Shown: positions 29,527 through 46,515, numbered from the stretch's first letter. The stretch is 64,000 nucleotides of DNA from Longimicrobiales bacterium (GCA_965238005.1 OZ250165.1:4288001-4352000); one strand, 5' to 3'. The notes: generated from the sequence alone by a model not told the origin. A program made the numbers and translations.

Positions 29527-29615
29527 GTGAGCCTGGGTAGACTCGAACTACCGACCTACGGATCAAGAGTCCGACCGCAGTACATACGCGTGGTACCCCG
29601 AGGTATCCTGAGCTA
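29527..29615 (-). other. att-like site: chimeric tRNA 3' half (Lys-like anticodon arm, Ile-like T/acceptor) plus diverged flank
   Basis: Minus strand reads CGGACTCTTGATCCGTAGGTCGGTAGTTCGAGTCTACCCAGGCTCAC. 29527..29557 is 30/31 identical to 37971..38001, and the flank aligns with 31401.. and 44396.. Confidence 0.8.
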
Positions 29616-29755
29616 CGGGAGAGACACCGGACCCCGAAGGTTTCCGGCCCTACTTCTAGTCCGCAGCCCGTGACGGGAAGTACGCACCCACACCGTGCGA
29701 GGGCATCCGCTATCGTTGCGGGCATAAAGGCCAAAGATCTGGCGAGGACGCCCAC

Positions 29756-31222
29756 ATGAAAATCCTGATGAGCCTCGTGTTCTATCCCCGGGGAGGGAGT
29801 GCCCAGGTCGCCCGCTATTTGTCGCGTGCACTGATCGAGCTGGGCCACGACCTGCACTTGGTCACCGGCACGCTGCGCGACGGTGACCCGCAACACGACG
29901 CCGAAGTATTCTTCGGAGAGATCCCTCTCACTTTGGTCGATTATACCGACGCTTGGCACGGGTTCGAACGGGGTGAGAATCCGATTTCCGACCAGTGGCC
30001 GGTCCCGTTCCACCCGAGTTACGAAGACAAGCCCGGTGTACCGGATCGCGTCTTCTCCCAACTCAACGAGGGCGCCTACTCAGCGTTGCGGGAGTGTTGG
30101 ACCGGAGTGTTCCAACGTGTGAAGGAGCACTTCGAGCCTGATCTTCTTCACTTGCACCATCTCACGTACGCACATCTTGCCGCAGCGCATGTATTTCCCG
30201 ATGTGCCTAAGCTGACGCAGCTCCACGGGACCGAGATAAAGATGCTGGAACAGCTCGATGAGGCGACGGATGAGCCGGGTGGCGAGGCTTCAGGTGGCGA
30301 GTCGGACCATGTCGGGCGCGGAATCCTCACCGACGCGGTCTCCGTTACGGACCACTTCGCGGCCATCAGCCAGGACGTTCGCGAGCGAGGGATGGTACGC
30401 TTGCACCTGGACGAGGAGGACATCACCACGATCCCGAATGGCGTGGACACGACGTTGTTCCGACCGTTGAATTGGTCCGCCGATGAAAAGTGGGATTTTC
30501 TGCAGAAGATTTTGGTGGAAGAGCCCCGGGGCTGGGCTGCGGGCGGTGCCCCGGGAAGCGTGCACTACGACCGGACCGACACGAAACGGCTGAGGGACGA
30601 GTCGGGCGCGTTGAAGCCTTTGGCGATTTTCGTGGGGCGATTTCTCGACTTCAAACGTGTCCCGCTGTTACTCCGTGCCGTCTCGCGAGTCAATCGGTCC
30701 TCGGAACGCGACGGTGACCCCTCCTTCAACTTGCTGGTGTGGGGCGGAATGCCCGGCGAATGGGAAGGCGAGCACCCCCACACGGTCGCCCGTTCCCTCG
30801 ACTTGGCGAATGTGTTTTTCTGCGGATGGTTGCCGCACGATGTTCTATCTCGAGGACTGAACCTCGCGGACGTCTTTGTAGCCCCGTCCTTCAACGAGCC
30901 GTTTGGCCAAGTGTACCTCGAAGCGATGGCTGCGGGGGTTCCAGTGATCGCGACGCGAAGCGGAGGGCCGCTCGGCTTCGTGGTCGACACGGGAGCCGGT
31001 GCGAACGGATGGCTGTGCGAGGTGGACGACTTGGAATCCTTGGCGACGACGCTCCGCCACGCCGTCACGGATGAATTGGAACGCAAGCGTCGAGGCGTAA
31101 ATGCACTGGCACTGGTCCGGGGCCGGTACGACTGGAAAGAGATCGCCTGCCGGTACGTCGAACTCTACGGTGCCGTGAGAGACGTCGGCGGCGACGGTCC
31201 GGCTGATACGATCATTGGTTGA
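29756..31222 (+). CDS. GT4 (GT-B) glycosyltransferase
   Basis: PRGGSAQV, HLHH, QLHGT, IPNGVD, FVGRFLDFKR and EPFGQVYLEAMAAGVPVI. Confidence 0.92.
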   Translation: MKILMSLVFYPRGGSAQVARYLSRALIELGHDLHLVTGTLRDGDPQHDAEVFFGEIPLTLVDYTDAWHGFERGENPISDQWPVPFHPSYEDKPGVPDRVFSQLNEGAYSALRECWTGVFQRVKEHFEPDLLHLHHLTYAHLAAAHVFPDVPKLTQLHGTEIKMLEQLDEATDEPGGEASGGESDHVGRGILTDAVSVTDHFAAISQDVRERGMVRLHLDEEDITTIPNGVDTTLFRPLNWSADEKWDFLQKILVEEPRGWAAGGAPGSVHYDRTDTKRLRDESGALKPLAIFVGRFLDFKRVPLLLRAVSRVNRSSERDGDPSFNLLVWGGMPGEWEGEHPHTVARSLDLANVFFCGWLPHDVLSRGLNLADVFVAPSFNEPFGQVYLEAMAAGVPVIATRSGGPLGFVVDTGAGANGWLCEVDDLESLATTLRHAVTDELERKRRGVNALALVRGRYDWKEIACRYVELYGAVRDVGGDGPADTIIG

Positions 31223-31254
31223 GCCGCCCTCCCGTGCCCACCAGTTCCCGACAA

Positions 31255-31548
31255 GTAACCCGAGTTTTTGGGGTCCCACATGGGGTCCCGAGGCCCCATT
31301 TTCCGCCCCTAACTGACCGACACAAAAAAGCCCGGAAGCCCAGATAACTCTTGGACTCCCGGCCAGTACCCCGCCAGGGACTCGAACCCCGAACCTACTG
31401 ATTAAGAGTTAGATAGCAGTATATACGCAGAGTGTTCGTGAGGTGGCCTAAGTTGTGTCGAGTTAGGGCGTTAGGGAGTCGACTGGTCTTTTGAGTGTTG
31501 CTGAGCTTTCACCAGTTACGGGGAGTTTGGGGTCCCGGTTGGGGTCCC
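31255..31548 (-). mobile_element. Complete attP-like unit, copy 1: arm repeats, terminator, tRNA-Lys(CTT) 3' half (31366..31409), arm repeats
   Basis: TGGGGTCCC x2 at each end. Core on minus is ACTCTTAATCAGTAGGTTCGGGGTTCGAGTCCCTGGCGGGGTAC. Colinear with 44251..44544. Confidence 0.82.
31324..31362 (-). terminator. Intrinsic terminator after the tRNA-Lys 3' half (second copy at 44321..44358)
   Basis: CCGGGAGTCCA-loop-TGGGCTTCCGG followed by GCTTTTTT. Confidence 0.75.
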
Positions 31549-31562
31549 AACGCTGTGGTCTT

Positions 31563-32330
31563 TCAGGAACGGACTCTCCCCCCCGAACCCCCGTCACCAC
31601 CAATTCGTCGCGCGCTCGCGTAGCAGGACACGTACATGAGGCACCGCTCCCGCAGCTCGTATTCCGCAGCGGTCACTTCGTCCGGATGGCCATGGGCAAG
31701 TTCGTAGGGGATCACTCCGCGTTGTACGCCAGCCAGAAGTACCCGAGAGAACTCGAGCCCTTTCATCCGATGCATGGTGGAAAGTCGAATCCCTATCCCA
31801 CCGGCCTCCAGACCTTCCTCTTCCTCGACGCGCGTGACCTCGAGTCCATCACCTCGGAGGAGCGGCTCGTAACGGTCGTCGAGAAGTTTGTTCGTGCGGG
31901 CCGCCACGCAAATGGTCGAATCGCGAACACCGGAATCGATCCAGTTTTTCACGCGAGAGAGAATGAATGAGGCCTCATTGGCCTCACTCTTGAAGTTGGT
32001 CACTTCAGGAGTCGGGCCCTCCCGGACCGAGTGATACCCTTGGAGGCCGTCACTTCCACCGTCGAGATCGTCGATCTCGCACTCCTCCAGCACCGCCACA
32101 GCCCTGGACCGGATCTGCTGCGTGGTCCGGTAGTTCAGGCGGAGTCGCAGATCCCGGCCTCCGATCTCGATGCCGCACTGACTCATGACCACCGGCCTGC
32201 CATAGATTCTTTGATGTCCATCGCCGACCAGGTACAGGGAATTTGGCCCCTCGGGTGCGATCGTCCGGAGTAGCTTGAGTGCTGGAGCCGTAAGATCCTG
32301 GACCTCATCAACCAACACGGTCCGGTACGG
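31563..32330 (-). pseudogene. UvrD/SF1 helicase C-terminal fragment
   Basis: VLVDEVQD, VGDGHQRIY, LNYRTT and STMHRMKGLEF. ATRARDEL is reached only via a frameshift near 31625. No Walker A motif. Confidence 0.88.
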
Positions 32331-32364
32331 CAACAGGACCGCCCCCGCGAGCAGTTCCATCGGT

Positions 32365-32770
32365 TCGGCACTCCCGACGACGGTCGACGTTCGGGCATAC
32401 AACCACTTCCTGGGAGCGTGCCAGGTTGTATTGATGGGCGCCCCCGAAGTCGCAAGCCGATACCGGGAGGGGTTGCCCGGGTGCCTCGGAAACCGGCCGA
32501 TCCTCATGCCCGGGTTCCACTCCAATCTCCGGCGGCGTCTTCTTCGCTGGTACCGGGATCATGGGCTGGAGCCCAGGGTCGTCGCCGAAATCGCTGACAG
32601 TGCTGTGCTCAAGGTCTTCGGACAGCGCGGGCTGGGTATGTTCGCGGTGCCGACGGCGGTCGAGGCGGACGTCGCTCGTCAGTACGAGGTGGAGCGGATC
32701 GCGGTCCTGGAGGGAGTGCGGGAGGAGTATTACGCCATCTCCGTGGAGAGGCGCATCCGTAATCCGGCCA
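32365..32770 (+). pseudogene. nhaR: NhaR-like LysR regulator, substrate-binding domain fragment
   Basis: VRAYNHFLG..LRRRLLRW..VVAEIADSAVLKVFGQRGLGMF..YYAISVERRIRNP. No HTH. Confidence 0.8.
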
Positions 32771-32844
32771 CTAGCCCCCTGCCCCGCTTTCACACATGCG
32801 ACGGCTGTGACGACTAAACTGTTTGAGCGATCGTCTCAATAGCA

Positions 32845-32925
32845 CGGGCGGTCTCCAGGACGACCTGCTCGCTCTCGTATTCCAGCTTCTCGGCGCGGGT
32901 GTCGACGAGGTGCTGGACCCGAGCT
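32845..32925 (-). pseudogene. Short remnant of the same TerS-like gene seen at 40215
   Basis: RVQHLVDTRAEKLEYESEQVVLETAR versus RIQHLVDRRAEKLEYESEQVVLETAR. Confidence 0.7.
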
Positions 32926-33186
32926 ATCACGTTGACGCACTCGACGTGACTGGGGGGAACGAGGGGTAGCCAGTCATTTGCCTTCGACGATAGGGAGCGG
33001 TCGCTCGGCAGGCAACCGATTCTCGGGAGGTAGCAAGTCGGGATGTGCCGTTGCGCACCGTCGGGTCCGAGGCGACCGGTTCGCGGTGAACGTCCTTCCG
33101 TCGTAGGATGACTGGCCCAGCTCTCCCCCGCGACGCATTGCACCGAGATCGGCGACGTCGACGGATTCCCCCAAGACGGAGTCGCC

Positions 33187-34746
33187 GTGCGAAAGCTGCG
33201 AGTCGCGGTCCTCGATCTGGTCACCAAGGCGCCGACGCGCACCCTGTGGGCTCGCGTGGTGCATCCCAGTTTCGCGAGCATCATGCCGCAGGCGATCGCC
33301 GCGTGGTGTGAGAAGGCAGGACACGACGTCACCTTCGTCTGCTACACGGGCTTCGAGAACCTGCTCGAGGAGGTCCCGGCTGATCTCGACCTGCTCTTCG
33401 TGGGGGCGTTCTCCCAGGCGGGTCAGCTCTCGTACGCGCTCAGCAACATGTTCCGGCAACGCGGCTGCGTGACGGTCCTGGGCGGCCCCCACGCGCGCAG
33501 CTATCCGGACGACGCCCGCAAGTACTTCGATTACGTCCTGGGCTTCACCGACGAGGAGATCGTCGCTCGAGTTCTCGAGGAGTGCTGCGCCCAGCGGCCA
33601 TACGGTGAATACCTCACCGCGAGCCAACAGCCCCGGCACCTACCCGGAGTCCGCGAGCGCTGGAAGTACATCAAGCCGACCATCATGAAGTCGGCGACAC
33701 GGATCAAGGGTGTCCCGATGATCGGGAGCCTCGGATGCCCGTACACGTGCAGCTTCTGCGTCGACTCCACGGTGCCGTATCAGCCGATGGCCTTCGACGA
33801 GATCCGCGACGATCTGCGCTTCCTGGTCGAGGAGATGCCCCAGGCATGGATCGCATGGCACGATCCCAACTTCGGGGTCCGCTTCGACGACTACATGGGG
33901 GTGATCGAGGACGCTGTGCCCCCCGGGACGCTCACGTTCGCGGCTGAGAGCAGCCTGTCGCTACTCTCGGAGGACCGGGTCACGCGGCTGGGCGCCGCCA
34001 ACTTCAAGCTCATGCTCCCGGGAATCGAGTCCTGGTACGGCTTCGGCAACAAGGCCAAGACGGGCACGAAGACCGGGCTCGCCAAGATGGAGCAGGTCTC
34101 CGATCACGTGAACATGATCTTGGAGCACATCCCCTACGTACAGACGAACTTCGTGATCGGTCTGGACGACGACGAAGGCTGCGAGCCGTTCGAGTTGACC
34201 AAGAAGTTCCTCCGTCGGACGCCGGGGGCGTTTCCCGGTTACTCGCTCCTATCGTGTTTCGGCGAGGCGGCGCCGCTGAACCTCGAGGTGCAGCGCGCCG
34301 GTCGCGTGCGCCCGTTCCCCTTCCACTTCCTGAACAACAATCAGGCGATGAACGTGCAGCCCAAGAACTACGAGTGGACCACGTTCTATGACCACCTCAT
34401 CGACCTCTGCGAGTACTCGTTCTCGCTGCCTACCCTGGTTCGGCGTTTCCGCGCCACCCCCCCGCTCTTCGCGAAGGGGCTCAACCTAGTCAGGGCGATG
34501 TCGTCCGAGGGTTACGGCCGCATCAAGTATCACAAGACGATTCGCCGCATGTTGGGGGAGGATCGCCACGTGAGGAACTTCTTCGAGGGCGAGACCGACG
34601 AGATCCCACGTTTCTACGTGGACCGCATTCGGCACGAGCTCGGATCGTTCTGGGAGTACCTGCCCGAGGGGGCACTGGACCACGACCAGAACGCGTACGT
34701 GAAGAAGACCGACAAGGCCCGCGTGATGCAGGCGGCACAGGGATAG
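33187..34746 (+). CDS. B12-binding-domain radical SAM protein
   Basis: TVLGGPHA, GCPYTCSFC (CxxxCxxC), DPNF and PGIES. Confidence 0.9.
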   Translation: MRKLRVAVLDLVTKAPTRTLWARVVHPSFASIMPQAIAAWCEKAGHDVTFVCYTGFENLLEEVPADLDLLFVGAFSQAGQLSYALSNMFRQRGCVTVLGGPHARSYPDDARKYFDYVLGFTDEEIVARVLEECCAQRPYGEYLTASQQPRHLPGVRERWKYIKPTIMKSATRIKGVPMIGSLGCPYTCSFCVDSTVPYQPMAFDEIRDDLRFLVEEMPQAWIAWHDPNFGVRFDDYMGVIEDAVPPGTLTFAAESSLSLLSEDRVTRLGAANFKLMLPGIESWYGFGNKAKTGTKTGLAKMEQVSDHVNMILEHIPYVQTNFVIGLDDDEGCEPFELTKKFLRRTPGAFPGYSLLSCFGEAAPLNLEVQRAGRVRPFPFHFLNNNQAMNVQPKNYEWTTFYDHLIDLCEYSFSLPTLVRRFRATPPLFAKGLNLVRAMSSEGYGRIKYHKTIRRMLGEDRHVRNFFEGETDEIPRFYVDRIRHELGSFWEYLPEGALDHDQNAYVKKTDKARVMQAAQG

Positions 34747-34774
34747 AGACCAGGCCGGCATTCTCCCGCACTTG

Positions 34775-35785
34775 TCACGCGAACGCTACCAGCCGCAACG
34801 GCTCGGACTTCCCACGCAGCTTCGTGGGGCCCATCTCCTCGACTGTCCATCCGTCCGGAAGAGTCAGGCGTTCGAAGAGATCGGCGGACCCGACGAGGCG
34901 CCTTCCGAGCCGGGCACACTCTCCTTGAATCCGGGCGCCGGTGTTGAGTACGTCGCCGTTGAAGACGAGCCCGCGCTTCAGATCTCCGATCTCCGCAGTC
35001 ATTACCTCCCCCACGTGCACCCCGGCCTTGTACTCCGGCACGACACCGAATTGGTCCAGGTAACGCTGTGTCTTCTTTTCGATGACGGAGTCGATGTCGA
35101 AGAACACTCGGAGGCAGTTCGCATCCTTGATCCCCCTCTCCTCCCTCCAGGTGACGACGACTTCGTCTCCGACGTACTCGTAGATCTCACCACCATTGTT
35201 GAGTACCGGCCCGGAGATGTCCCTGAAGAACTCGTTGATCAGGCCGAGGTAGGCCTCGTGCCCCAACTCCTCCGCGAGCGACGTCGAGGACTTGAGGTCT
35301 AAGAACATGAAGATGCGAGATTCGCGGTGAGGCCTGTGATATCGGCCCAGCAAGTAGCTCAGTAACACCCCCGGACCGAGGATCCGATCGAGCTGTCGAA
35401 AGAAGATGATGATCACGTAGAGAAGGAAACCGATGGCGACTTTGCGGGGGAGGGTGGGTTCTAAAAGAGACGCCCAAAATTCATCGATCGTCAGGCCTTG
35501 AAGGAAACCGAAGACGAGGCCGACCGACGAGAACACGGCAATCAGGGATCCGATGTACGTGATTGCCTTCGCCAGTAGTGCCACCGAGAACGGCAGACGC
35601 CGCATCCGCTCGTCGAAGGTGGACTCCTCGAGCAGGGCCAGCGGCATCGCGAGGGCGATCCCGACGACGAGACCGATGATCGAAATCCTCCCGTCGCTCA
35701 TGAACTCATAGCCAAGGGCGACGGGAACGCAGACCATTATGATCATGATGGCGGTTCTGAACCGGCGTGCTGTTTTCGCAGTCAT
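34775..35785 (-). CDS. Membrane class III adenylate/guanylate cyclase
   Basis: About 4 TM helices, FMFLDLKSST, YVGDE and GDVLNTGARIQ. Confidence 0.9.
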   Translation of the reverse strand: MTAKTARRFRTAIMIIMVCVPVALGYEFMSDGRISIIGLVVGIALAMPLALLEESTFDERMRRLPFSVALLAKAITYIGSLIAVFSSVGLVFGFLQGLTIDEFWASLLEPTLPRKVAIGFLLYVIIIFFRQLDRILGPGVLLSYLLGRYHRPHRESRIFMFLDLKSSTSLAEELGHEAYLGLINEFFRDISGPVLNNGGEIYEYVGDEVVVTWREERGIKDANCLRVFFDIDSVIEKKTQRYLDQFGVVPEYKAGVHVGEVMTAEIGDLKRGLVFNGDVLNTGARIQGECARLGRRLVGSADLFERLTLPDGWTVEEMGPTKLRGKSEPLRLVAFA

Positions 35786-36040
35786 GATAGCCTCGGACTG
35801 GGACAAACTCTGATTCGAGTCAGACAATCGGATGAGGCTACCGCGCGGGGTGTGGATCTCGCAAACGGGGGCTCCTCGGCATGGAAGGGGTCATGAGGAA
35901 GACTGGAGCGCAGCTCACGCAGTTCTCACGATATACGGCTCGCCGGGGTGGTGCGGCTCGGAACGGGCGCCTAGTCTGGGGGCGTCCCGGCTGGCGCATG
36001 AAGTGCAGGCTCTGGATTACACCGATCCGTCACAGGGGTC

Positions 36041-37042
36041 ATGGTCCACAGCACAGCAACCAGAACGACGTCGATCATCAGAGCTCTAGGATGGGTCGCA
36101 ATCGTGCTTTCGGCGATCCTCCTCCTTGGCGACGGGGTCTCTCGTCTGGCTGGCTTGACTCAGGATCCCCGGCCGACGGATGTGTTGGACATTCGCTATG
36201 TCCAGCACCCGTGGATCACGGTCCTCCACATCGTCCCAGGGCTGCTGTTCCTCACGCTGGCTCCCCTGCAGTTCGTCGCCCGGATTCGGAAGCGGCGAAT
36301 CGGCCTTCACCGCGGCCTCGGGCGCATCCTCGCCATCTGTGCCGCGATCAGCGCCCTGTTCGCTCTGGTCGCCAACTTCCGCTTGCCCGCCTTCGGCGGA
36401 ATCAGCACTCAGGCGGCAACAGTCTTCTTCGGCACAATCTTTCTCTTTTCGCTGACGAAGGCGCTTCGTCATATCCGGCGGAAAGAGGTAGGCCTGCATC
36501 GCGAGTGGATGATCCGAACGTTCGCCATAGCCACAGGGGTTGCGACCATCCGGGTTTTCCTCGAGCTGCTCACGGCGCTGTCGGGACTCGGCCTCGAGGA
36601 GGTGTTTGGTGCCTCCTTCTGGCTGGGCTTCGGCGTCAACCTCCTAGTGGCGGAGGCGTGGATCAACCACACTCGTGTGGCGGGTCGCCTGACGGGCACC
36701 CGCACCTTATCGGCGAGCATCGGATTATGCTTTGTTTTCGTCGGCATCGCTCCGGCTGTCCATGCTCAATCCACGCCTTCATTTTCGGCGAGTTACGACT
36801 TTTTGGCCTATCAGAATTTCAAGAACCCAACGATTGCCGGCCAGCCCGCACCCGAGTTGCGAGACACCCAGGTACTAACCAAGAGGCGCCACTACTTCTA
36901 CGAGTTTCCGCCGCTGGAGGAGTGCCGCGATGGGCTGCGGGCGAGGTCGACTGGGACGGCGGACGGGAAAAAGGTGAAGTCGAGCTGGTTGGCGACACGA
37001 GTGCCTGGCCACGTTTCCTCGCGGCGACGGGCTATCTACTGA
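36041..37042 (+). CDS. DUF2306-like membrane protein running in frame into unrelated gene fragments
   Basis: LHIVPGLLF..LQF..HRGLGR..HREWMIR..AEAWI to about 36670, then a signal-peptide-like stretch and RRHYFYEFPPLEECR. Confidence 0.75.
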   Translation: MVHSTATRTTSIIRALGWVAIVLSAILLLGDGVSRLAGLTQDPRPTDVLDIRYVQHPWITVLHIVPGLLFLTLAPLQFVARIRKRRIGLHRGLGRILAICAAISALFALVANFRLPAFGGISTQAATVFFGTIFLFSLTKALRHIRRKEVGLHREWMIRTFAIATGVATIRVFLELLTALSGLGLEEVFGASFWLGFGVNLLVAEAWINHTRVAGRLTGTRTLSASIGLCFVFVGIAPAVHAQSTPSFSASYDFLAYQNFKNPTIAGQPAPELRDTQVLTKRRHYFYEFPPLEECRDGLRARSTGTADGKKVKSSWLATRVPGHVSSRRRAIY

Positions 37043-37067
37043 GGTATGAACCCGAAGAGGGAGCCGA

Positions 37068-37403
37068 GTGATGGGAGCAAAAGCAAAGACGGATGCGAGT
37101 GCCCTTTTCTGGAGGACCGCGGCGGCGTTGATGAGTCGCCCCGATGTGAGCGAGGGGACGCTCATGGGGTTCCCATGCCTGCGGGTGGGCGGTGGCTTCT
37201 TTGCCACGTGCGATCACCGCTCGGGGGACCTCATCGTGAAGCTGTCACGTGACCGGGTGCAGGAAGTCATCGCTAAGGGCGAGGGTGAAGCGTTCGCACC
37301 GGCCGGTCGCGTATTCAAGGAGTGGGTGTTGGTAAATCGACGTGACGCGCGGCGATGGCGGAAATTGATGGACGAGGCGCTTCAGTTCGTCCGCACCGCT
37401 TGA
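37068..37403 (+). CDS. Small TfoX/YjbR-like hypothetical protein
   Basis: GTLMGFPCLRVGGGFFA..LIVKL..FAPAGRVFKEWV. GAGGAG RBS. Confidence 0.75.
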   Translation: MMGAKAKTDASALFWRTAAALMSRPDVSEGTLMGFPCLRVGGGFFATCDHRSGDLIVKLSRDRVQEVIAKGEGEAFAPAGRVFKEWVLVNRRDARRWRKLMDEALQFVRTA

Positions 37404-37543
37404 ACACGGACGTCTCGTTGATCAACTCCAGATGGAAGACCTGCGGCACTACCTGGACGGTTTCTAGTCGGATGTCTTGTCGGCATACGGCGCTGAGATC
37501 GCGCGACGAATGAAAGAGTGAAACCACCAACGAGGAGAGAGCG

Positions 37544-37831
37544 ATGAAGAAGTTTATGATTCTGCATTTCGGATTCGAGAAACCCACCCCCGAAATCATG
37601 GCGGCCTGGGGAAAATGGTTCGAGTCGATCGCCGACAAGACGGTCGACCAGGGCGGCTTCCACGGGGGTGCGCGAGAAATCTCAAAAAGCGGAACCAAAG
37701 ATCTGCCGATGGGCATGGAGTCCATCACCGGCTACTCGATCATCGAAGCCGCGGACCTCGACGCGGCAGAAAAAATCGCACAAGACAATCCATACATCGC
37801 AAGCATCAGAGTCTATGAAATTACGATGTAA
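37544..37831 (+). CDS. YCII-related domain protein
   Basis: MAAWGKWF..ITGYSIIEAADLDAAEKIAQDNP..IRVYE. GAGGAG RBS. Confidence 0.88.
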   Translation: MKKFMILHFGFEKPTPEIMAAWGKWFESIADKTVDQGGFHGGAREISKSGTKDLPMGMESITGYSIIEAADLDAAEKIAQDNPYIASIRVYEITM

Positions 37832-37970
37832 GACCCAGTCATTTATGAAGAGGCTCATAGCGACTGCTCTGGAGCAGAACCCGCCATTCCTCCATCGTCG
37901 CGGTAGTCTTGCCCAAGTCGACCAAAAACACCGTCGTCCAGCCCGATAGAGGTCTCAACCATTTCCACGA

Positions 37971-38163
37971 GTGGGCCTGGGTAGACTCGAACTACCGACC
38001 TCACGCTTATCAGGCTCCTACGGAAGGAGCCGAATGTCGGCAAGAAACCGTATAAACCCTTGGTAGGGCGCACGATCTGCCGTACTTGCCGTCATGGGAT
38101 GCCGGAATCTGCCGTGATTAAAAGGCACAATGACGGGCCCATTGGGCACACGAACGGACACAA
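37971..38163 (-). other. att half-site: tRNA-Ile(GAT) 3' half (37971..38015) plus one arm
   Basis: Minus strand reads GCCTGATAAGCGTGAGGTCGGTAGTTCGAGTCTACCCAGGCCCAC. The flank has four TGCCG repeats and a GGGCACA/GGACACA pair. Confidence 0.82.
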
Positions 38164-38182
38164 CGCGCCGACCCAGATCGAC

Positions 38183-38233
38183 TTCTGCTTGCGCCTCCCG
38201 GCCCACTTTCGGATGTTGACCTCGGTCTGATCC
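38183..38233 (+). promoter_or_regulatory. 51-bp conserved leader of kinase genes, copy 1
   Basis: 48/51 identical to 40827..40877. Contains TTGCGC-N17-GATGTT. Confidence 0.7.
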
Positions 38234-38245
38234 CGGAGTGCGCCC

Positions 38246-38385
38246 GTGTCCGATCCAGTTATCCGTCTCAACGTCGCCCTGAAGGGCCGCTACCGCATCG
38301 ACCGGGAGCTAGGCGAGGGCGGGATGGCTACCGTCTATCTGGCCGATGACACAAAGCACGAGCGCAAGGTCGCGCTCAAAACCCT
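38246..38385 (+). pseudogene. Ser/Thr kinase N-lobe fragment
   Basis: MSDPVIRLNVALKGRYRIDRELGEGGMATVYLADD..KVALK, then homology stops. Confidence 0.88.
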
Positions 38386-38451
38386 GGAGTGCGCGTGTAG
38401 GCCGGGCGTAGTCTCTTATCAGTCTACCGAGACCCACAGCAAGGGAGTCCC

Positions 38452-38949
38452 ATGAAAAAGTGGCTGAGGCGCATCCGTGGCGCAGTCGGCATGGGGCTGA
38501 CTTGGGCTGCAGCATGGCTCGGCGTCGGTTCCATACTCAATGCGGTAACTGCGGTAGTCTTCGGGGGCAGCCAGGGGATCGAGGGTATGGTCCTCTACGC
38601 CATTGCCGGCTTTGTCGTCGGTACTGCTTTCTCCGGGGTCCTGGGGCTCGCTGAGGGCCGTCGGAACTTCCATCAGATGTCCCTCGGGCGCTTCGCCGCT
38701 TGGGGGGCGTTGGGGGGTCTTCCACTGGGGCTTTACATGTCATGGCTCAATGGCGATTTCGCGCCTGGAGGGAGCATCGCGGCGGCGCTGCTTCTTACCG
38801 CCGTGCCAACACTGCTCGGTGCGGGCTCCGCCGCCGGTTCGCTGGCACTGGCTCGAAGGGCAGACGACCGCGAGATGCTCGAAGCCGGTGCAGAAGTTGC
38901 CGACATTGGGCTGACCGAAGAGGAGAAGCGCGAGCTGCTCGCGGGGTAG
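38452..38949 (+). CDS. Hypothetical 4-TM membrane protein
   Basis: MKKWLRRIRGAVGMGLTWA.. hydrophobic ORF with AAGGGAG RBS. Confidence 0.8.
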   Translation: MKKWLRRIRGAVGMGLTWAAAWLGVGSILNAVTAVVFGGSQGIEGMVLYAIAGFVVGTAFSGVLGLAEGRRNFHQMSLGRFAAWGALGGLPLGLYMSWLNGDFAPGGSIAAALLLTAVPTLLGAGSAAGSLALARRADDREMLEAGAEVADIGLTEEEKRELLAG

Positions 38950-38991
38950 GAGAGGCTGGCACCGTGTGTTGGGCGCTGAGTCGCAGTTCCA

Positions 38992-39026
38992 TCCAGCCAT
39001 CGCCCAACCTCAGCATCACCCATAGC
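38992..39026 (-). repeat. 35-bp dispersed repeat, copy 2
   Basis: Reverse complement matches 18791..18825 at 34/35. Confidence 0.85.
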
Positions 39027-39336
39027 TTGACCTCAGCGGTCCGAATCGAAGGACCCCTGCTTCCCGCAGCCCAGGAGGTTGACAATGCTTCGTGTTGCTT
39101 GGTTCACCTTATGTGCAAGTCTATGATCGGTTCCCCTATCTCTATCGGCTCTCGTGCCGAGCCCAAGCGGATCTGTACGGCATCGCCTCTGAGCGACCAA
39201 ACGACTGGATCGTCGACGGACGTGTTCGCCTGCTCGACTTCCTACGCGCCTACGAGTTGTACAGCACTGGGTAATCCGGGGTCACGAGGGACCGACGAAC
39301 CAGGGTAGGTGGGGCGGAAAACACAACAAGAGACCA

Positions 39337-39618
39337 ATGATGCTTACGACGGAAGAATGTGAACAACTCCGGGCCCAAGCCGAACTGCAAGGGATGCCTG
39401 CATGCGAAAAGTGTAAGGTCATCCCTGGGACCCTAACGGATGACATAATCACGGTACGTGAAGTTCCGGCCGTGCCGATGTCTCAGGCCGACCGGGATGT
39501 ACAGGTCGCCCGAGCTAAGCATGAGTGGACCGTAGTGGTTCAGGATGTCACCTACGCGGTCGGGCAAGATAGCCGATACCTGTTGATCGCCTATGCGCCC
39601 TGGCCCGGAACCACCTAA
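39337..39618 (+). CDS. Small hypothetical protein
   Basis: 93-aa ORF of lower GC with a CEKC pair. No recognised family. Confidence 0.45.
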   Translation: MMLTTEECEQLRAQAELQGMPACEKCKVIPGTLTDDIITVREVPAVPMSQADRDVQVARAKHEWTVVVQDVTYAVGQDSRYLLIAYAPWPGTT

Positions 39619-39753
39619 GGCGGCGGGGACCCCCATGAGGCGGGTAGAGGCGGGAGGAGCAGACTAGAGCTTCCTGGGACCCATCCGACACCACTGACCC
39701 ACCCCCAAAGGCTAGATCCATCGACCTCCAGAACTCGTTCCACGCGAGTTAGC

Positions 39754-39853
39754 CGGAGCCCAAGCGGAATCTCCAGTCACCGCCGGGAGTCGCTCGCGCG
39801 CTTCGCTTGCGGTCGGCATCTTGGTTCCGCAGCAGAATCGCAGATCCGTTAGA
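39754..39853 (-). other. attC-like partial site
   Basis: Minus strand starts TCTAAC-GGATCTGCGATTCTGCTGCGG (R''/L''-like). CGGAACCAAG pairs with CTTGGGCTCCG around a GCGAAGC centre. The L'/R' half is missing. Confidence 0.45.
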
Positions 39854-40214
39854 GTGCGCCGTGCAAAGGTGGCGCGTTCTTGCAGGTGGAAGTCCTGCCG
39901 AGGCAGTTGGCGGTTCAGCCTCGTAGCTACGGGCGGGCGGTCTTCGGGTAACGGGAGGTCGTCAAGCCGCTCGGACAAGAGCCCTCGAAAGGAGGGCCAG
40001 CAAATCTGCGGGCCGAACGCGAGTGAACCCTGAGCAGGCCCCGAAAGAGCAGTCGCGAGAGCCGACCCGACTCTAACGCGGGGAAGGCCGCCGTATCCGG
40101 GACTGGGACAACCGCCGGTTCCGGGTGACTCGCCGGGGTAGTGGGGACGGCACGTAGAGACAGAACGCGTCGCAACACGGGAGGCCCACGGAGGCGAGGG
40201 GGTCGCTGCCCCTC
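39854..40214 (+). mobile_element. Group II intron 5' fragment (domain I to about III; no RT, no domain V/VI)
   Basis: Begins GTGCG. Contains a GCAGGTGGAAGTCCTGC hairpin and GCGAGTGAACCCTGA, GCCGACCCG..GGGGAAGGC, GGGGTAGTGGGGACGGCACG and AACACGGGAGGCCC blocks typical of bacterial group II introns. Confidence 0.82.
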
Positions 40215-40685
40215 AACCGGATTCAGCATCTCGTGGACCGCCGAGCTGAGAAGCTGGAGTACGAGTCGGAGCAGGTAGTTCTGGAGACCGCCCGGCTGGC
40301 CATGAGCATCATCTGCGACGTCAGGGAGATCACCGAGAGCGGCGACGTGGTGGTCTTCCCCTCGGACACGTGGAGTGATCACACGGCGAAGGCGGTGAGC
40401 GAGGTCACAGTCCACAAGACCGAGCACTACGGCAAGGACGGAGGCCTCCGCAGCATCAGCACGCGGACCAACGTGAAGATGCATCCAAAGCAGGCGGCGC
40501 TGGCCCTACTCTCCCAGCAGCTCGGCATCATCGGCAAGGCCGCGAAGCAGCGTCCGGTCTGTTTGGAGGACATGGGCATCTGCATCCTCCCGACCCTCGA
40601 CGAGGAGCCCGACTGGGAGCGCATCGAGGACGGCGACCCACGCTACTCGCTGGTCAGGCCGCCGAGTGACGACGGGGACGAGTGA
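40215..40685 (+). pseudogene. Terminase small subunit-like protein lacking its N-terminal HTH
   Basis: RAEKLEYESEQVVLETARLA..AVSEV..VKMHPKQAALALLSQQLG resembles the TerS (Terminase_2) C-terminal pattern. Confidence 0.6.
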
Positions 40686-40826
40686 TGAATTATCAGGAAG
40701 AGATCATTCCTTCAGATCAGCAAGCCGATAACGGCCTCTGAGCCACGAGGATGGTCCAGCCTACCCCCAGGGATACCGAGTAAATCCCGAAGACGCTCTA
40801 CACGCCTTTACACGCGTCTGACAGGG

Positions 40827-40877
40827 TTCTGCTTGCGCCTACCGGGCCGCTTTCGGATGTTGACCTCGGTCTGATCC
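40827..40877 (+). promoter_or_regulatory. 51-bp conserved leader of kinase genes, copy 2
   Basis: 48/51 identical to 38183..38233. Confidence 0.7.
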
Positions 40878-40897
40878 TCCTATCCACGGACCGCTCG

Positions 40898-43800
40898 ATG
40901 ACTAGCTCCAAGAGGCGTCGCCTTCTCGCCGTGATGTTCACGGATGTGGTGGGCTACACGGCATTGATGCAGCGGGATGAGGAAGCGGCCCGGATCGTCC
41001 GACGACGCCACCGGGAGGTGTTGGAGGCGGCTGTTTCCTCAAACGGTGGTGATCTGCTTCAGTACTTAGGCGATGGAAGCCTCACCACGTTCCCGAGTGT
41101 CGTTGATGCGGTACGCGCCGCGATCGAGGTTCAACGCGGGCTCCGCCAGGAACCCGTCGTCCCGTTGCGGATCGGCATCCATCAGGGTGACATCTCCTAC
41201 GACACCCAGGGCGCTTACGGCGATAGTGTAAACATCGCCTCACGAATCCAGTCACTGGGGCCAGCCGGCAGCATCTTGGTCTCTGCGAAGGCTCATGACG
41301 AGGTCAAGAATCAGCCTGACATCACTACGACCCCTCTCGGTGAGTTCGAGCTAAAGAATGTCGAAGAATCGTTGCAGGTTTACGGGATTGTGGCAGACGT
41401 GCTCACGGTCCCGACTCGCAGTGAGGTTCTTACAAAGATTCGAAGTGCGCCTGACGCTGCGTTGAACATCACAATCCGCCTGAACACGGCTCTCGAGGGC
41501 CGCTACCGCGTAGGGCGTGAGCTTGGCCAGGGCGGCATGGCTACGGTTTACTTGGCCGAGGACCTGAGGCACGAGCGGAAAGTCGCCCTCAAGGTTCTCA
41601 AGCCTCAAGTCGCAGCAGTCGTGGGTGCCGAACGCTTCCTGGCCGAGATCAAGACCACAGCGAATCTCCAGCATCCGCACATCCTGCCGCTGTTCGACTC
41701 CGGCGTGGCCGACGGGTTCTTTTTTTATGTGATGCCCTACGTGGAGGGGGAGAGTCTGCGGGGTAGGCTGGACCGTGACCATCAGCTTCCGGTCGACGAG
41801 GCCGTCCGCATCGCCACGTACATGGCCGAGGCGCTCGACTACGCTCACCGCCGCGGAGTGATCCACCGCGACATCAAGCCGGGGAATGTCCTGATCCATG
41901 ATGGGCAGCCGGTGATCTCTGACTTCGGCATCGCCCTCGCGGTTGGGGCTGCCGGAGGGGATCGGCTTACCCAAACAGGCCTCAGTATGGGAACGCCGTG
42001 CTACATGTCGCCTGAGCAGGCGACCGGCGAACAGACGGTGGGGCCGGCCACAGACACCTACGCGCTCGGGTGTGTCCTGTACGAAATGCTAGTCGGTGAA
42101 CCGCCGTACACGGGCAGAACAGCGCAGGTGATCCTCGGCAAGAGCATCGCGGGGGAACCCGTGTCGGCTACCGAGCACCGTCCATCGGTCCCGGCAAATG
42201 TGGACGCGGCGATCAGAAACGCTCTAGAGAAGCTGCCAGCGGATCGCTTCACGGGCGCTCAGGACTTCGCTAAGGCGCTGGAGGATGAGCACTTCCGGTA
42301 TGGGGAACTGGTAACGGAAGGTGCAAGCGCCGCCGCGGGTCCATGGAAGGGATTGTCAATCGCCTTGGCGGCTGCCTTGGCCGCGACGCTCGGATGGTCG
42401 CTACTCAGCCCCGAACCACCCGCGCCGCTCGCCCGATTCTCGTCACCTTTCGAGGAGGGACAGTTTCCGGCTCCGGCTTCGTTTACGATGGAGTTCATGG
42501 CGGACGGCTCCGCGTTGGTGTACGTGGGACCGGATGCGTCAGGCGGGGGCACGCAGTTGTGGCTACGGCGTTGGGCCGACCTCGATGCAACACCCATTCA
42601 GGGAACAGAAGGTGCGATCGACGTCGCGCTGTCGCCCGACGGGCGAGAGGTGGCATTTGTGGCCCAGCGTGCGTTGCGTGTGGCCCCACTCGACGGTGGC
42701 CCGAGCCGGGCGCTGGTCGAGCTGGACGGCGGGGTCTCGGAGTGGACTTCGGACGGGACTGTGTACTTCACTGAACCCCCCGCCTCACTCGGACTCGCCC
42801 GCATTCCAGCCACAGGCGGAGGTAGCGAGGCAGTCGAGAGCATTACCGAGTTGCTAGAAGGCGAAGCCTACCACGGCTTTCTCAGCGTGCTTCCGGGGGG
42901 AATCATGGGGGTGTTCCAGGTAATGCACTCCCTGACTGGAGAGGACGCTGAGGTCTGGGCCATAGACCTGGACACCCGCGAGAGAAGGTTCCTCACGGCG
43001 GGCACCACACCGCGCTACGCTTCGACGGGGCACTTGCTGTTCGTAACGCCGGACGGTGTCCTCATGGCGCAGCCTATGGACCCAGCCACGGCAGAGCTTA
43101 CTGGCCCGGCCGTCCCGGTGGTAGAGGGTCTCGCGATCAACATCGGCCTTGCAGCCTATGCGGTGTCGGAGAGCGGGACGCTGATCTATTCGGCCGGGGG
43201 CCTGGCTGCGGTTGAGGGGATCTTCGAGCCAGTATGGGTGACGCGCTCAGGCGAGGCGGCACCTGTCGATCCTGGCTGGCGGTTCAACGCCATGGAGGGC
43301 TTCGGATTGAGGCTTTCGTCGGACGGCGCACGGGTGGCTATCACACAGAGGGTTGATGGAAACGAGGATGTCTGGATCAAGCAGCTTCCTGACGGACCGC
43401 TTGAGCGGCTCACATCAGATGACCTGGTCGACGCCTCCCCTTTCTGGAGTCCGAACGGTCAGTTCGTCGCCTACAGTAGGGGGGTACTGAACGGCGACAT
43501 CTGGCAAAGGCGTGCCGACGGGACGGGGTCGCCGCAGCTGGTACTCGACGACGAGCGAAGCCTGTATCAGGGCCGCTGGAGCCCCGACGGCGAGTGGATC
43601 GTATTCCGCACAATTACAGGACCCACACCGTCGTCCGACGACGACATCGTTGGCTTCCGGCCAGGCGTGGACAGCGCCGCGATACCGTTGGTTGCGAGCC
43701 CAGAGTTCTCCGAACAATCCCCGGCCCTATCCCCGAATGGGCGCTGGCTCGCGTACACTTCCGACCGGACAGGTCGGAGGGAAGTCTACGTCACGCCCTT

Positions 43801-44146
43801 CCCTGACGTCGATTCAGACCCAGTGTCAGTCTCGCGGGCCGGGGGACAAGCCCCCCTGTGGGCGCACAGCGGCAGCGAGTTGTTCTTCGTCGATGCCCAG
43901 GGAGGGCTCATTGCGGCTGGGGTAGAGGCGGATTCGGTGTTCCGCATCCTTCAGAGAGAGACGCTTTTCACCATCGGGTCGGAATACCTCCTTCTGGAGG
44001 GTATGGATTTCCACGACATCCGGCCCGACGACGAACAGTTCCTGATGGTACGTGCGGCGGTAGTCAGCGCTGAATCCAGTGGCGATACCCGGTTCATACT
44101 GGTCGAAAACTGGTTCACTGAGCTTCGCGAGCGGATGGGTAATTGA
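40898..44146 (+). CDS. Class III cyclase - Ser/Thr kinase - TM - PD40 beta-propeller fusion
   Basis: FTDVVGYT, YLGDG, GDSVNIASRIQ; GQGGMATV, VALK, HRDIKPGN, DFG, YMSPE; TM; multiple SPDG/SPNG repeats. Confidence 0.93.
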   Translation: MTSSKRRRLLAVMFTDVVGYTALMQRDEEAARIVRRRHREVLEAAVSSNGGDLLQYLGDGSLTTFPSVVDAVRAAIEVQRGLRQEPVVPLRIGIHQGDISYDTQGAYGDSVNIASRIQSLGPAGSILVSAKAHDEVKNQPDITTTPLGEFELKNVEESLQVYGIVADVLTVPTRSEVLTKIRSAPDAALNITIRLNTALEGRYRVGRELGQGGMATVYLAEDLRHERKVALKVLKPQVAAVVGAERFLAEIKTTANLQHPHILPLFDSGVADGFFFYVMPYVEGESLRGRLDRDHQLPVDEAVRIATYMAEALDYAHRRGVIHRDIKPGNVLIHDGQPVISDFGIALAVGAAGGDRLTQTGLSMGTPCYMSPEQATGEQTVGPATDTYALGCVLYEMLVGEPPYTGRTAQVILGKSIAGEPVSATEHRPSVPANVDAAIRNALEKLPADRFTGAQDFAKALEDEHFRYGELVTEGASAAAGPWKGLSIALAAALAATLGWSLLSPEPPAPLARFSSPFEEGQFPAPASFTMEFMADGSALVYVGPDASGGGTQLWLRRWADLDATPIQGTEGAIDVALSPDGREVAFVAQRALRVAPLDGGPSRALVELDGGVSEWTSDGTVYFTEPPASLGLARIPATGGGSEAVESITELLEGEAYHGFLSVLPGGIMGVFQVMHSLTGEDAEVWAIDLDTRERRFLTAGTTPRYASTGHLLFVTPDGVLMAQPMDPATAELTGPAVPVVEGLAINIGLAAYAVSESGTLIYSAGGLAAVEGIFEPVWVTRSGEAAPVDPGWRFNAMEGFGLRLSSDGARVAITQRVDGNEDVWIKQLPDGPLERLTSDDLVDASPFWSPNGQFVAYSRGVLNGDIWQRRADGTGSPQLVLDDERSLYQGRWSPDGEWIVFRTITGPTPSSDDDIVGFRPGVDSAAIPLVASPEFSEQSPALSPNGRWLAYTSDRTGRREVYVTPFPDVDSDPVSVSRAGGQAPLWAHSGSELFFVDAQGGLIAAGVEADSVFRILQRETLFTIGSEYLLLEGMDFHDIRPDDEQFLMVRAAVVSAESSGDTRFILVENWFTELRERMGN

Positions 44147-44198
44147 CCCGTCAGATCCCCTGTTCGCGTCTTCGTGGAAGGCGTGGTGATCGTCGGCA
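44143..44198 (+). pseudogene. Stub of a coupled downstream membrane-protein gene
   Basis: TTGA overlap, then TRQIP / RVFVEGVVIVG across a frameshift, cut off shortly before the att unit. Confidence 0.4.
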
Positions 44199-44250
44199 AC
44201 CTGCGGCCAGATACTCAGGGTTCCCCTCCCATCCACTGAGTCCTCGCCAG

Positions 44251-44544
44251 GCAACCCGAGTTTTTGGGGTCCCGCTTGGGGTCCCATAGGCCTCTTTTCG
44301 CCCCTCAGCTCACCGACACCAAAAAGCCGGAAGCCCGGGTAACTCCTGGACTCCCGGCCAGTGCCTCGCCAGGGACTCGAACCCCGAACCTACTGATTAA
44401 GAGTTCGACCGGAACATATACGCAGAGTGCCCGTGAGGTAGTCTAAGTTGTGGCGAAGTCTTGGGGCTAGGGGGTCGATTGTCCTCTCGAGGGTTCCCGA
44501 GATTCGACCCGTTTCGGGGAGTTTGGGGTCCCGGTTGGCGTCCC
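44251..44544 (-). mobile_element. Complete attP-like unit, copy 2 (tRNA-Lys(CTT) 3' half at 44361..44404)
   Basis: Same order and length (294 bp) as 31255..31548, with arms TGGGGTCCC x2 on the left and TGGGGTCCC/TGGCGTCCC on the right. Confidence 0.82.
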
Positions 44545-46509: not shown

Positions 46510-46515
46510 CGCACC

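Follow-up and report, generated by a model that had tools for sequence, protein, structure and literature searches.

Two-armed attP-type sites built on tRNA-Lys fragments, and a probably fossil array of integrase-less cargo, in a Longimicrobiales genome

Two direct repeats of about 330 bp in the genome of a Longimicrobiales bacterium are attP-type sites of two-armed anatomy. They are assigned to this type because both arms occur singly, on either side of cargo, at the intact tRNA-Lys(CTT) gene. The repeats lie in a stretch of 64,000 nucleotides (GCA_965238005.1 OZ250165.1:4288001-4352000), here called the window, to which positions refer unless they are given as genome positions. With moderate confidence, we regard these units as junctions that arose by serial site-specific integration of tRNA-Lys-specific elements of the Longimicrobiales, in an array that has since been remodelled. 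The array in the window is probably a fossil, CIME-like accretion array.

Anatomy of the two-armed units

The two units were delimited by a repeat search and by comparison with relatives (31227-31556 and 44208 or 44220 to 44546). They are colinear and in direct orientation, as stated in a preliminary description, which had given them 294 bp; the homology is slightly wider. A search of the own genome aligns them with an identity of about 82% over positions 1-306 of the query (E 9.5e-80). Within each unit, two TGGGGTCCC pairs enclose a terminator, the portion of tRNA-Lys(CTT) that runs from the anticodon loop to the 3' end, and a conserved stretch of 115 nt, in this order:

31227-31556, minus strand: unit 1, two-armed attP-type site (repeat search, own-genome search, comparison with relatives)
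31227-31365: left arm of unit 1, with a TGGGGTCCC pair at 31269-31289 (copies starting at 31269 and 31281)
about 31330-31364, minus strand: terminator of unit 1, its hairpin-like part with a T-run mapped to 31331-31344
31366-31409: core of unit 1, matching the tRNA-Lys(CTT) of this genome at 44/44 positions (tRNA positions 32-75)
31410-31556: right arm of unit 1, with a pair at 31528-31548 (copies starting at 31528 and 31540)
44208-44546, minus strand: unit 2, two-armed attP-type site (repeat and own-genome searches, comparison with relatives)
44265-44285: left pair of unit 2 (copies starting at 44265 and 44277)
44367-44404: core of unit 2, 38/38 identical to tRNA-Lys(CTT); the acceptor part (44361-44366) differs at 2 positions
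44524-44544: right pair of unit 2 (copies starting at 44524 and 44536; the second copy reads TGGCGTCCC)

The units part from the tRNA at 31409/31410 (unit 1) and 44404/44405 (unit 2), and loose contig ends at 31409 (four runs) continue into the 5' half of the tRNA. The TGGGGTCCC pairs have a period of 12 nt and stand about 130 nt to each side of the core. The 9-mer taken alone shows no enrichment (42 and 27 occurrences on the respective strands, about 56 expected). Pairs with the 12-nt period are enriched, 8 of the 13 relaxed matches in the 4.84-Mb genome falling in unit-related sequence, all on one strand. It is to TGGGGTCCC that an integrase would bind. The conserved right arm matched no known RNA family in Rfam, and a sigma-70 scan of unit 1 yielded no promoter.

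The intact tRNA-Lys(CTT) gene, which the preliminary description had proposed to locate, lies at genome positions 3924059-3924133, about 400 kb from the window. A left arm alone abuts this gene and a core with a right arm alone follows 6.9 kb downstream, beyond the cargo; homology at this locus breaks exactly at the anticodon loop. The two-armed attP-type anatomy claimed earlier is borne out by this separation of the arms. The cores are identical to the tRNA, arm motifs are repeated on both sides and single arms surround an insert; a partner integrase beside the site was found neither in the window nor near any TGGGGTCCC pair in the genome. Full two-armed units number only two in the 4.84 Mb. 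A hybrid copy is present at genome positions 351690-351790, where the right-arm pair is joined to sequence that normally follows the left-arm pair.

The array in the window and its cargo

Besides the two units, the array contains two other tRNA-derived or tRNA-like fragments and two intervals of cargo:

29526-29612, minus strand: third, diverged site (repeat search, Rfam)
29756-31222, plus strand: single gene of a GT4-family glycosyltransferase, the cargo of the 1.8-kb interval (PF00534, 5.8e-27)
31563-37949: first part of the 13-kb interval (Pfam and ORFs)
31563-32525, minus strand: UvrD-helicase fragment
32275-32817: LysR fragment
33187-34746: radical-SAM-like gene
34775-35827, minus strand: cyclase-domain gene
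within 31563-37949: a 396-aa ORF, a YjbR-like ORF and a YCII-like ORF
37971-38015, minus strand: tRNA-Ile(GAT) 3' fragment, 45/45 identical, oriented as the Lys cores
38016-44207: second part of the 13-kb interval
38178-38404: kinase-gene fragment with a multicopy upstream motif
39880-40022, plus strand: group II intron domain 1-4 piece (Rfam)
40898-44146: 1082-aa cyclase/Ser-Thr-kinase/PD40 protein
within 38016-44207: small unassigned ORFs

The diverged third core with a homologous flank, placed near 29527 by the preliminary description, is indeed there. Over 59 nt (29540-29598) it is 71-75% like the units, and 29528-29589 on the minus strand gives a borderline Rfam tRNA match (30.1 bits against a cut-off of 29, E 0.0075). 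The tRNA-like 3' fragment of this site has a T arm of the tRNA-Ile type and a loop that reads CTT; the next 45-50 nt or so are homologous to that part of the right arm which lies near the core, without a TGGGGTCCC pair. Possibly, this site is the distal end of the array, next to a Na+/H+ exchanger gene (26839-29406). Homologues of the latter in G001 and G002 (75%) reside among other mobile DNA and have no neighbours in common with the window.

The 13-kb interval had been considered as one unit. It is composite, since it holds the tRNA-Ile(GAT) fragment, missed in the preliminary description, which is a relic of an element with another att type; gene fragments and the group II intron piece are found there as well. 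There are no recombination or transfer genes in 31563-37949, and single genes of this part are 86-92% like scattered loci in G001, G002 and G011. The glycosyltransferase gene of the smaller interval is 77% like a locus elsewhere in G001, a genome of the same genus.

The window harbours neither an intact tRNA (ARAGORN, 0 genes) nor a tyrosine integrase, as had been noted before: none of the genome's 48 PF00589 matches falls within it, and an integrase HMM found nothing in six frames. Nor is there an integrase remnant beside either left arm or in the two intervals. The array touches no tRNA-Lys gene, and no further piece of a unit occurs within about 100 kb to its right. Its borders are not definable by synteny, which is broken at nearly every gene in comparison with same-genus genomes. 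Logan contigs of four runs, inspected for 27500-47000, break at the units and contain no joint between 31409 and 44404, no circle and no empty site, which is uninformative either way. A listed joint from 31551 to 39792 is probably derived from another copy, because its short side spans only 31 letters and 21 foreign letters intervene.

Related sites, the partner integrase and the origin of the array

Searching the unit against its own genome and against relatives, as had been advised, revealed arrays at the tRNA-Lys genes of G001, G002, G011, G034, G061, G062 and G063, in addition to the two full copies here. In other Longimicrobiales genomes and in metagenome contigs the units bound integrase-less cargo of 2-15 kb, and no tyrosine integrase lies between the att sites of the tRNA-Lys arrays (Pfam, HMM). 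Single arms around an insert at an intact target recur in G034, G002 and the loci L082 and L122. The core co-varies with the tRNA of the host: units of G034 carry the G034 variant of tRNA-Lys(CTT), and copies in G001, G011 and at G000-3662k (G000 being the present genome) carry tRNA-Lys(TTT) cores. The right arm is 75-87% conserved across all these copies. Elsewhere, G061 has three orphan two-armed units in a row, at spacings of 2.5 and 3.4 kb, and orphan units also occur in G063. In 49 of 78 metagenome loci, at least 60 nt of unit-like sequence is present; the integrase HMM had 0 matches in the 74 loci scanned (319 kb), and the right-arm motif had 0 in viral contigs.

The comparison of cargo between cores, also suggested in the preliminary description, uncovered differences between near-identical metagenome contigs. 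L082 and L122 are identical at 3,743 of 3,743 positions and then differ by a 2.2-kb single-gene cassette, located between tRNA-Lys(TTT) and a cassette A. The latter keeps 100% identity over 3.7 kb in contigs that are only about 89% alike in their tRNA flank, which implies a recent transfer of a unit-bounded block; its neighbours differ between L082, L122 and L140. On the left-arm side, shared cassettes stay identical as far as the pair or slightly beyond it, not to the anticodon loop, with 16 mismatches in the next 65 nt. The end points of these identity blocks vary inside the units (L082 coordinates 3720, 3743 and about 23), and homologous exchange is therefore indicated.

An integrase gene split by IS3 (P0001/P0002) beside the own-genome tRNA-Lys core was considered as partner and rejected, because the adjacent arm has CAGTAAC and not TGGGGTCCC. 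At tRNA-Arg(TCT) there is an intact paralogue (80%), in a 22-kb island with a 44-nt repeat whose two arms both hold CAGTAAC pairs, in the same layout as in the units. This layout is also seen for the CCGCAACAC pairs of a tRNA-Lys island in G025. Two other integrase subfamilies of the Longimicrobiales hence have the same site anatomy with other repeats (CAGTAAC and CCGCAACAC).

The partner is likely to be another family of tyrosine integrases. In this genome, the candidate family has no intact member and is represented only by P0003, a C-terminal remnant of 105 aa outside the window, which is 91-98% identical to full-length integrases of 386-425 aa in public data. In L149 and L151, a GGGACCCCA pair is situated at the 5' end of ORFs that are 64-69% identical to the latter; the core there is only a 20-nt anticodon-arm-like sequence that lacks both the T arm and the terminator. 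The candidate integrase P0005 combines catalytic and SAM-like domains with a sub-threshold match to Arm-DNA-bind_4. The integrase with these arms that the preliminary description called for thus has a counterpart in a pair-linked family (L149, L151), but not in an intact gene of this genome. Left arms in G062, in the metagenome cassette A and in L127 are immediately adjoined by short C-terminal integrase remnants; in G005 the remnant is weaker (51% identity) and lies some 210 nt away from the tRNA-Lys core, at which no left arm was found. No contig combines a full unit with an adjoining intact integrase. In samples of family genomes, many of them incomplete, the best full-length match for P0003 was 71% over 58 residues (121 genomes), and for P0005 the best was 49%, which is no close relative (314 genomes). 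The array-bearing G011, G034 and G061-G063 contained none for P0005 at E 1e-30, and viral contigs a single relative, only 39% identical.

In the proposed course of events, the tyrosine integrase would be heterobivalent and would make its cut within the anticodon loop, positioned by the pairs of TGGGGTCCC arm sites at about 130 nt on either side. Along with its left arm, each element would supply a fresh tRNA 3' half and a terminator. Once a second element had entered, a left arm from one element, the core and a right arm from its neighbour would meet at the junction and make up the 330-bp unit. In most members the integrase gene, originally located after the left-arm pair, would have disappeared, leaving cargo-only, CIME-like cassettes of one to few genes. 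With its partner persisting only as the 105-aa remnant elsewhere in this genome, the window array would be movable only with an integrase in trans. It may have lost contact with its tRNA or started out at a secondary tRNA-like site (29527), and other insertions as well as homologous exchange among units would later have reshaped it. Several observations count against accretion: unit 2 is two-armed, though the simple model ends an array in a left arm and an intact tRNA; the array lacks a tRNA-Lys, and G061 and G063 have orphan units; identity blocks miss the anticodon loop on the left-arm side; and neither a full unit beside an intact integrase nor a close relative of the candidate turned up in the genomes sampled.

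It could also be imagined that a tRNA-Lys-based cassette system of the Longimicrobiales exists, in which a trans-acting integrase captures, stacks and exchanges cargo-only cassettes, each with a complete 330-bp site. This reading is a tentative one, with well below an even chance, and the same holds jointly for its action at both tRNA-Lys and resident units, by which arrays would become integron-like shuffling platforms across genera. That such a platform is still at work, a rare integrase in trans recombining the unit of a circular cassette with any resident unit and not just with the tRNA, so that arrays could grow wherever a unit has landed and single genes be shuffled between genomes, appears unlikely. 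One-gene cassettes and arrays purely of two-armed units (in the window, in G061 with 3 units and in G063) argue for it, as do the changing neighbours of cassette A, the 86-98% identity of window cargo genes to scattered loci in other genera and the 75-87% conservation of the units across genera versus unrelated cargo. However, lambda-type integrases are not known for efficient recombination between two attP-type sites, and no integrase is near any array. Moreover, the cargo is in both orientations and includes gene fragments, the block boundaries point to homologous exchange, and the contigs, which break at units, have neither circles nor empty sites for the window. Of the integron-like, trans-mobilised cassettes of the preliminary description, the integrase-less tRNA-Lys arrays in relatives, the cargo variation and the pair-linked integrase family hold up; the defining features of integrons fail, an intact integrase is missing here and the array is on no tRNA.

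At the other extreme, the sites could be pure relics, made long ago at tRNA-Lys, with homologous recombination and rearrangement between 330-bp repeats responsible for everything since, including the departure from the tRNA and the metagenome differences. The variable ends of identity blocks, the hybrid copy, the broken synteny and the drift of unit 2 from the tRNA by 2 mismatches are in line with this, but the recent transfer implied by cassette A and the continued existence of full-length integrases so similar to the remnant render it improbable. Finally, two-armed units away from tRNA genes and short pieces with the pair alone are reminiscent of a MITE-like unit, a small non-autonomous repeat copying to new sites, which the preliminary description had offered as an alternative. 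Such an origin is highly improbable: the unit ends are direct, the repeat search gave no inverted pair at them, full copies are as few as two, single arms stand apart around kilobases of cargo at intact tRNAs, and the core follows the host's own tRNA variant.

Even a fossil array is informative. It offers an explanation of the gene-by-gene scrambled order in these genomes and a clean natural series of arm motifs for one integrase clade (TGGGGTCCC, CAGTAAC, CCGCAACAC), suited to studies of the evolution of arm specificity, and it warns that a two-armed att site can be retained at a great distance from its tRNA target. If the cassettes are still mobilised in trans, they would constitute a second route, unrelated to integrons, for stacking and trading single genes at a fixed site. 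The host phylum, the Gemmatimonadota, is poorly studied and common in marine sediments and sponges; the host genome is that of a marine-type member.

Comparison with known systems

Literature searches gave no account of this system among the best 8-12 matches of each, and the word stem Longimicrobi occurred in none of the best 10 matches of one of them, which does not imply absence from print. The attP site of lambda-type elements measures about 300 bp and has a core with repeated arm sites on both sides, attL and attR each keeping one arm. In contrast, the putative arm sites described here are simple, symmetric direct pairs, and the integrase gene is absent from the sites. With integrons, the arrays share small non-autonomous cassettes with one recombination site each and an integrase that is not encoded by the cassettes. 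They differ in having no IntI, no attI and no attC hairpin, in a tRNA-derived site with direct repeats and in cargo of mixed orientation, often of several genes.

CIMEs, as portrayed in parts of PMC5704250, have kept their att sites and lost the genes for integration and transfer; they occur in tandem at the 3' end of tRNA-Lys, with chimeric internal att sites, examples being relatives of ICESt1/ICESt3 and the tRNA-Lys islands of Streptococcus agalactiae. The window intervals resemble those CIMEs in being bounded by att sites and devoid of integration or transfer genes. As to a possible derivation by decay from an autonomous element, integrase remnants lie beside left arms in relatives and metagenomes, and the two window intervals have none. 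Measured against the same parts of that source, the present case is different in that no ICE or IME adjoins the window array and conjugation genes are absent, that the cassettes are far smaller (2-6 kb, down to one gene), that the host belongs to the Gemmatimonadota, that arrays also occur away from any tRNA and that the candidate integrase was not found in the host genomes searched (PMC5704250).

The tycheposons of Prochlorococcus, according to the portions of bioRxiv 10.1101/2020.12.28.424599 drawn upon here, are tyrosine-recombinase elements for which tRNA genes are the entry point and which displace earlier arrivals inward, leaving islands with partial tRNAs, broken integrases and stranded cargo. 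As depicted there, they carry integrase and replication modules and stay beside the tRNA, whereas the window array has no tRNA and no integrase, and its kind of unit is mostly cargo-only, yet with complete, conserved two-armed sites. The tRNA-Lys locus of this genome fits such an island only loosely. SGI1 encodes its own integrase, unlike the units. Its secondary attachment sites and tandem arrays (PMC2297512) provide a precedent for integration off the primary site and for tandem copies. In comparison with these systems, what is found here is probably a decay product of a known kind, in an unusually compact, widespread and array-forming version.

Two-armed units and their setting in the window

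The preliminary description had recognised two colinear tRNA-Lys(CTT) units of 294 bp, and both stand. In the repeat search and in the search of the source genome (one contig, 4.84 Mb) they share 82% identity across 306 nt (E 9.5e-80). Set against copies in other genomes, their limits extend to those listed here.

Sites of the tRNA-Lys array in the window
29527: third site; tRNA-like 3' fragment with about 45-50 nt of right-arm homology, no pair
31227-31556: unit 1
37971-38015: fourth fragment, tRNA-Ile(GAT), same orientation as the cores, within the 13-kb interval
44208/44220-44546: unit 2
Left arm, both units (plus-strand reading): two TGGGGTCCC copies, spacing 12 nt
Hairpin with T-run, both units: terminator on the minus strand
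Core, both units: reverse complement of tRNA-Lys(CTT) positions 32-75
Right arm, both units: conserved, ending in a second TGGGGTCCC pair

The core of unit 1 matches tRNA-Lys(CTT) at 44 of 44 positions and that of unit 2 at 38 of 38, followed by two mismatches. The single TGGGGTCCC 9-mer is not enriched genome-wide (42 and 27 copies, against about 56 expected per strand), and the paired form is nearly restricted to the unit family, which accounts for eight of the 13 relaxed genome matches, all on the same strand. The third core, described earlier as diverged, is real but partial, and its Rfam tRNA match is borderline. As had been described, the 64-kb window contains neither a tRNA gene nor an integrase: the 48 PF00589 matches of the genome all fall elsewhere, and an integrase HMM built from 39 integrase segments of the source genome finds no match there.

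From left to right, the array runs from a Na+/H+ exchanger gene through the partial site, one GT4 gene, unit 1, 12.7 kb of mixed cargo and unit 2 to an amidohydrolase gene and the genes beyond it. Within the cargo are UvrD and LysR fragments, the tRNA-Ile fragment and a piece of a group II intron; the 13-kb interval, taken before as one non-autonomous unit, is instead a composite of several accreted relics. To the right of the array, about 100 kb contain no left arm, core or tRNA-Lys piece. Across the window, single-gene modules are 86-98% identical to scattered places in three related genomes (G001, G002, G011), with ordinary homologues at about 75%, and the region is very fluid. Relocation of the array by rearrangement is plausible, and the array looks like a fossil.

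Several other features accompany it. The TrkA/ion-channel gene at 24931-26700 is 93-97% identical at unrelated positions in the same three genomes (G011 belonging to another genus), its neighbours being at about 75%, and looks like a recently exchanged single-gene module. With further fragments of tRNA-Pro(GGG) (positions 30-53, at 50675-50698) and tRNA-Met (positions 56-74, at 18587-18605), the window as a whole resembles a patchwork of integration relics. Group II intron domains 1-4 lie at 39880-40022 on the plus strand (Rfam, 87 bits), with no reverse transcriptase nearby. In locus L063, an intron with reverse transcriptase and maturase (216-2121) sits inside a left arm, with the terminator on one side and the pair on the other, a placement that recalls introns inserting just after terminators. 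Finally, a motif of about 50 nt, TTCTGCTTGCGCC...GGATGTTGACCTCGGTCTGATCC, precedes Ser/Thr-kinase family genes at 38183-38233, 40827-40877 and 54002-54050 (reverse-complemented); there are some 35-37 copies in the source genome, relatives have many more, and the motif may be a common promoter or leader of a large family of kinase genes.

Single arms at intact tRNA genes, and arrays in relatives

Related features elsewhere in the source genome
3924059-3924133, minus strand: intact tRNA-Lys(CTT) gene
Immediately downstream of it: left arm, unaccompanied by a right arm
6.9 kb beyond the lone left arm: core with right arm only
Between these arms: SMODS/SLATT pair, nucleotidyltransferase, pentapeptide protein, left-arm remnant
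475388-475702: P0003, integrase remnant of 105 aa

In every copy compared, similarity to the tRNA gene ends at the anticodon loop, and in four sequencing runs the tRNA 5' half is the commonest continuation past 31409. Thus the behaviour of the arms is that of attL and attR, the anatomy of the two-armed unit is that of attP, and the earlier attP-type reading is supported. Moreover, the core tracks the host tRNA: units in G034 carry the T-arm variant of that genome, and copies in G001, in G011 and at 3.66 Mb of the source genome have a tRNA-Lys(TTT) core, the right arm remaining 75-87% conserved across copies with differing cores. It is difficult to see how this pattern could arise unless units recombined with the resident tRNA. 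Spread of the unit as a MITE-like repeat, the alternative offered before, is not supported.

At the intact locus, the first cargo past the right arm (L010 5492-6872; genome 3917492-3918872) is a SMODS nucleotide synthetase with a SLATT-like 2TM effector, a CBASS-like defence pair. An atypical tRNA-Lys(CTT) occurs among 17 tRNA genes in 1.8 kb at 1035994-1037821, and another 17 are grouped at 4451264-4453598.

The unit family belongs to the order Longimicrobiales of the Gemmatimonadota. Unit pieces reaching past the tRNA core are present in several genomes of the family, and tRNA-Lys arrays occur in G001, G002, G011, G034, G061, G062 and G063. Their inter-site cargo is unrelated from one genome to another and includes pilins, hydrolases, a sulfite-oxidase-like enzyme, transporters, TPR proteins, NHL propellers and TIR/STAND proteins, IS transposases being frequent. 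A GT2 gene is the recurring chromosomal neighbour at the far end of tRNA-Lys(TTT) arrays; the site beside it in G061 has terminator, core and right arm and no left pair, so that the pair is element DNA and not native flank. Two-armed units distant from tRNA-Lys occur in G061 (three in a row) and G063. An array of another att type, with at least six copies of a tRNA-Ile-type 3' fragment spaced 1.5-8 kb, lies at 3825691-3846108 of contig C1 in G011.

A metagenome scan with the pair motif returned 84 stretches and 78 loci (322 kb in total), with unit-like sequence of 60 nt or more in 49 of the loci. Eight two-armed units occur in seven contigs, alongside 21 sites with left arm and core and 15 with core and right arm; many sites are truncated by contig ends. 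Successive sites are mostly 2-6 kb apart.

Candidate integrases

No tyrosine integrase was found between the att sites of relatives (Pfam on 124 and 63 ORFs; integrase HMM). Matches to the HMM lie at 14270-15619 of L063, 4 kb outside an array, in the gene of L010 that an IS has split, and in a fragment in L052.

The gene beside the source genome's own tRNA-Lys core is a tyrosine integrase interrupted by an IS3 element (halves P0001 and P0002). An intact paralogue (80% identity) resides at tRNA-Arg(TCT), in a 22-kb island (1776164-1798342) that has a 44-nt direct repeat of the same geometry and CAGTAAC pairs in both arms. CAGTAAC also occurs in the arm beside the split gene, which was accordingly rejected as partner of the unit arms: it belongs to a separate element, an earlier entrant at tRNA-Lys, and the island is a complete relative sharing the site architecture.

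Short integrase C-termini directly adjoin left arms in cassette A (a 3.7-kb block of three metagenome contigs), G062 and L127; G005 has a weaker remnant (51%) about 210 nt from its tRNA-Lys core, and P0003 is 4 kb away from a tRNA-Lys(TTT) core that carries the proximal portion of a right arm. These remnants lead to a better partner candidate than the split gene. Complete proteins of 386-425 aa that share 91-98% identity with P0003 over its matched part are present in ENA and NCBI data. At the predicted N-terminus they have xPQ-x-xPQ or DPK-x-RPQ, repeating every four codons, which would be the translation of a GGGACCCCA pair. One of them, P0005, has catalytic and SAM-like domains and a sub-threshold arm-binding match (19 bits, cut-off 22.3). 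An ORF in L151 begins at 74, contains a pair at 112-132 and matches P0005 residues 1-120 at 64%; L149 matches residues 15-94 at 69% and has the pair in its DNA. Against the candidate, the core in both loci is just 20 nt, anticodon-arm-like, and lacks T arm and terminator, so that neither locus could restore a tRNA. Searches of 314 family genomes (best match 49%) and of five array-bearing genomes gave no close homologue. The link of the candidate family to the unit pairs is good but not closed. Mobilisation of the unit family in trans, as proposed before, is plausible.

Exchange between units, and comparison with known systems

Cassette A comprises a right arm, a SAM methyltransferase, IS5-like and IS6-like transposases, an integrase remnant and a left-arm pair, and is identical at all 3,743 positions in contigs L082 and L122. 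In L082 its left arm leads into an intact tRNA-Lys(TTT); in L122 there follow a short right arm, one PF00144 serine-hydrolase gene and another left arm before the tRNA, beyond which lie RNase HII and TrmD. In L140 the cassette has a left arm on its left, where L122 has plain flank. The variation in cargo between cores that had been sought is present in these contigs, as unit-bounded presence/absence variation.

The identity stops 8 nt beyond the pair, the following 65 nt (the terminator part) having 16 mismatches, and a simple anticodon-loop crossover does not account for this; against L113, it stops before the pair. The repeat at genome 351690-351790 is a hybrid: its distal right arm and pair are continued directly by what usually follows the left-arm pair, as if the cargo had been deleted by exchange between the two pairs. 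Units must thus also recombine homologously with one another, often at their pairs.

The array had been called integron-like; it shares the logic of an integron, but every defining feature fails. The closest described kind is a cis-mobilizable element (CIME) with tandem accretion. Tycheposon islands (bioRxiv 10.1101/2020.12.28.424599) likewise stack inward and hold partial tRNAs and broken integrases. Compared with CIMEs and Tycheposons, the unit family differs in that the candidate integrase is absent from the searched host genomes, most members are small and cargo-only, complete two-armed sites are strongly conserved across genera, and orphan arrays are formed as well.
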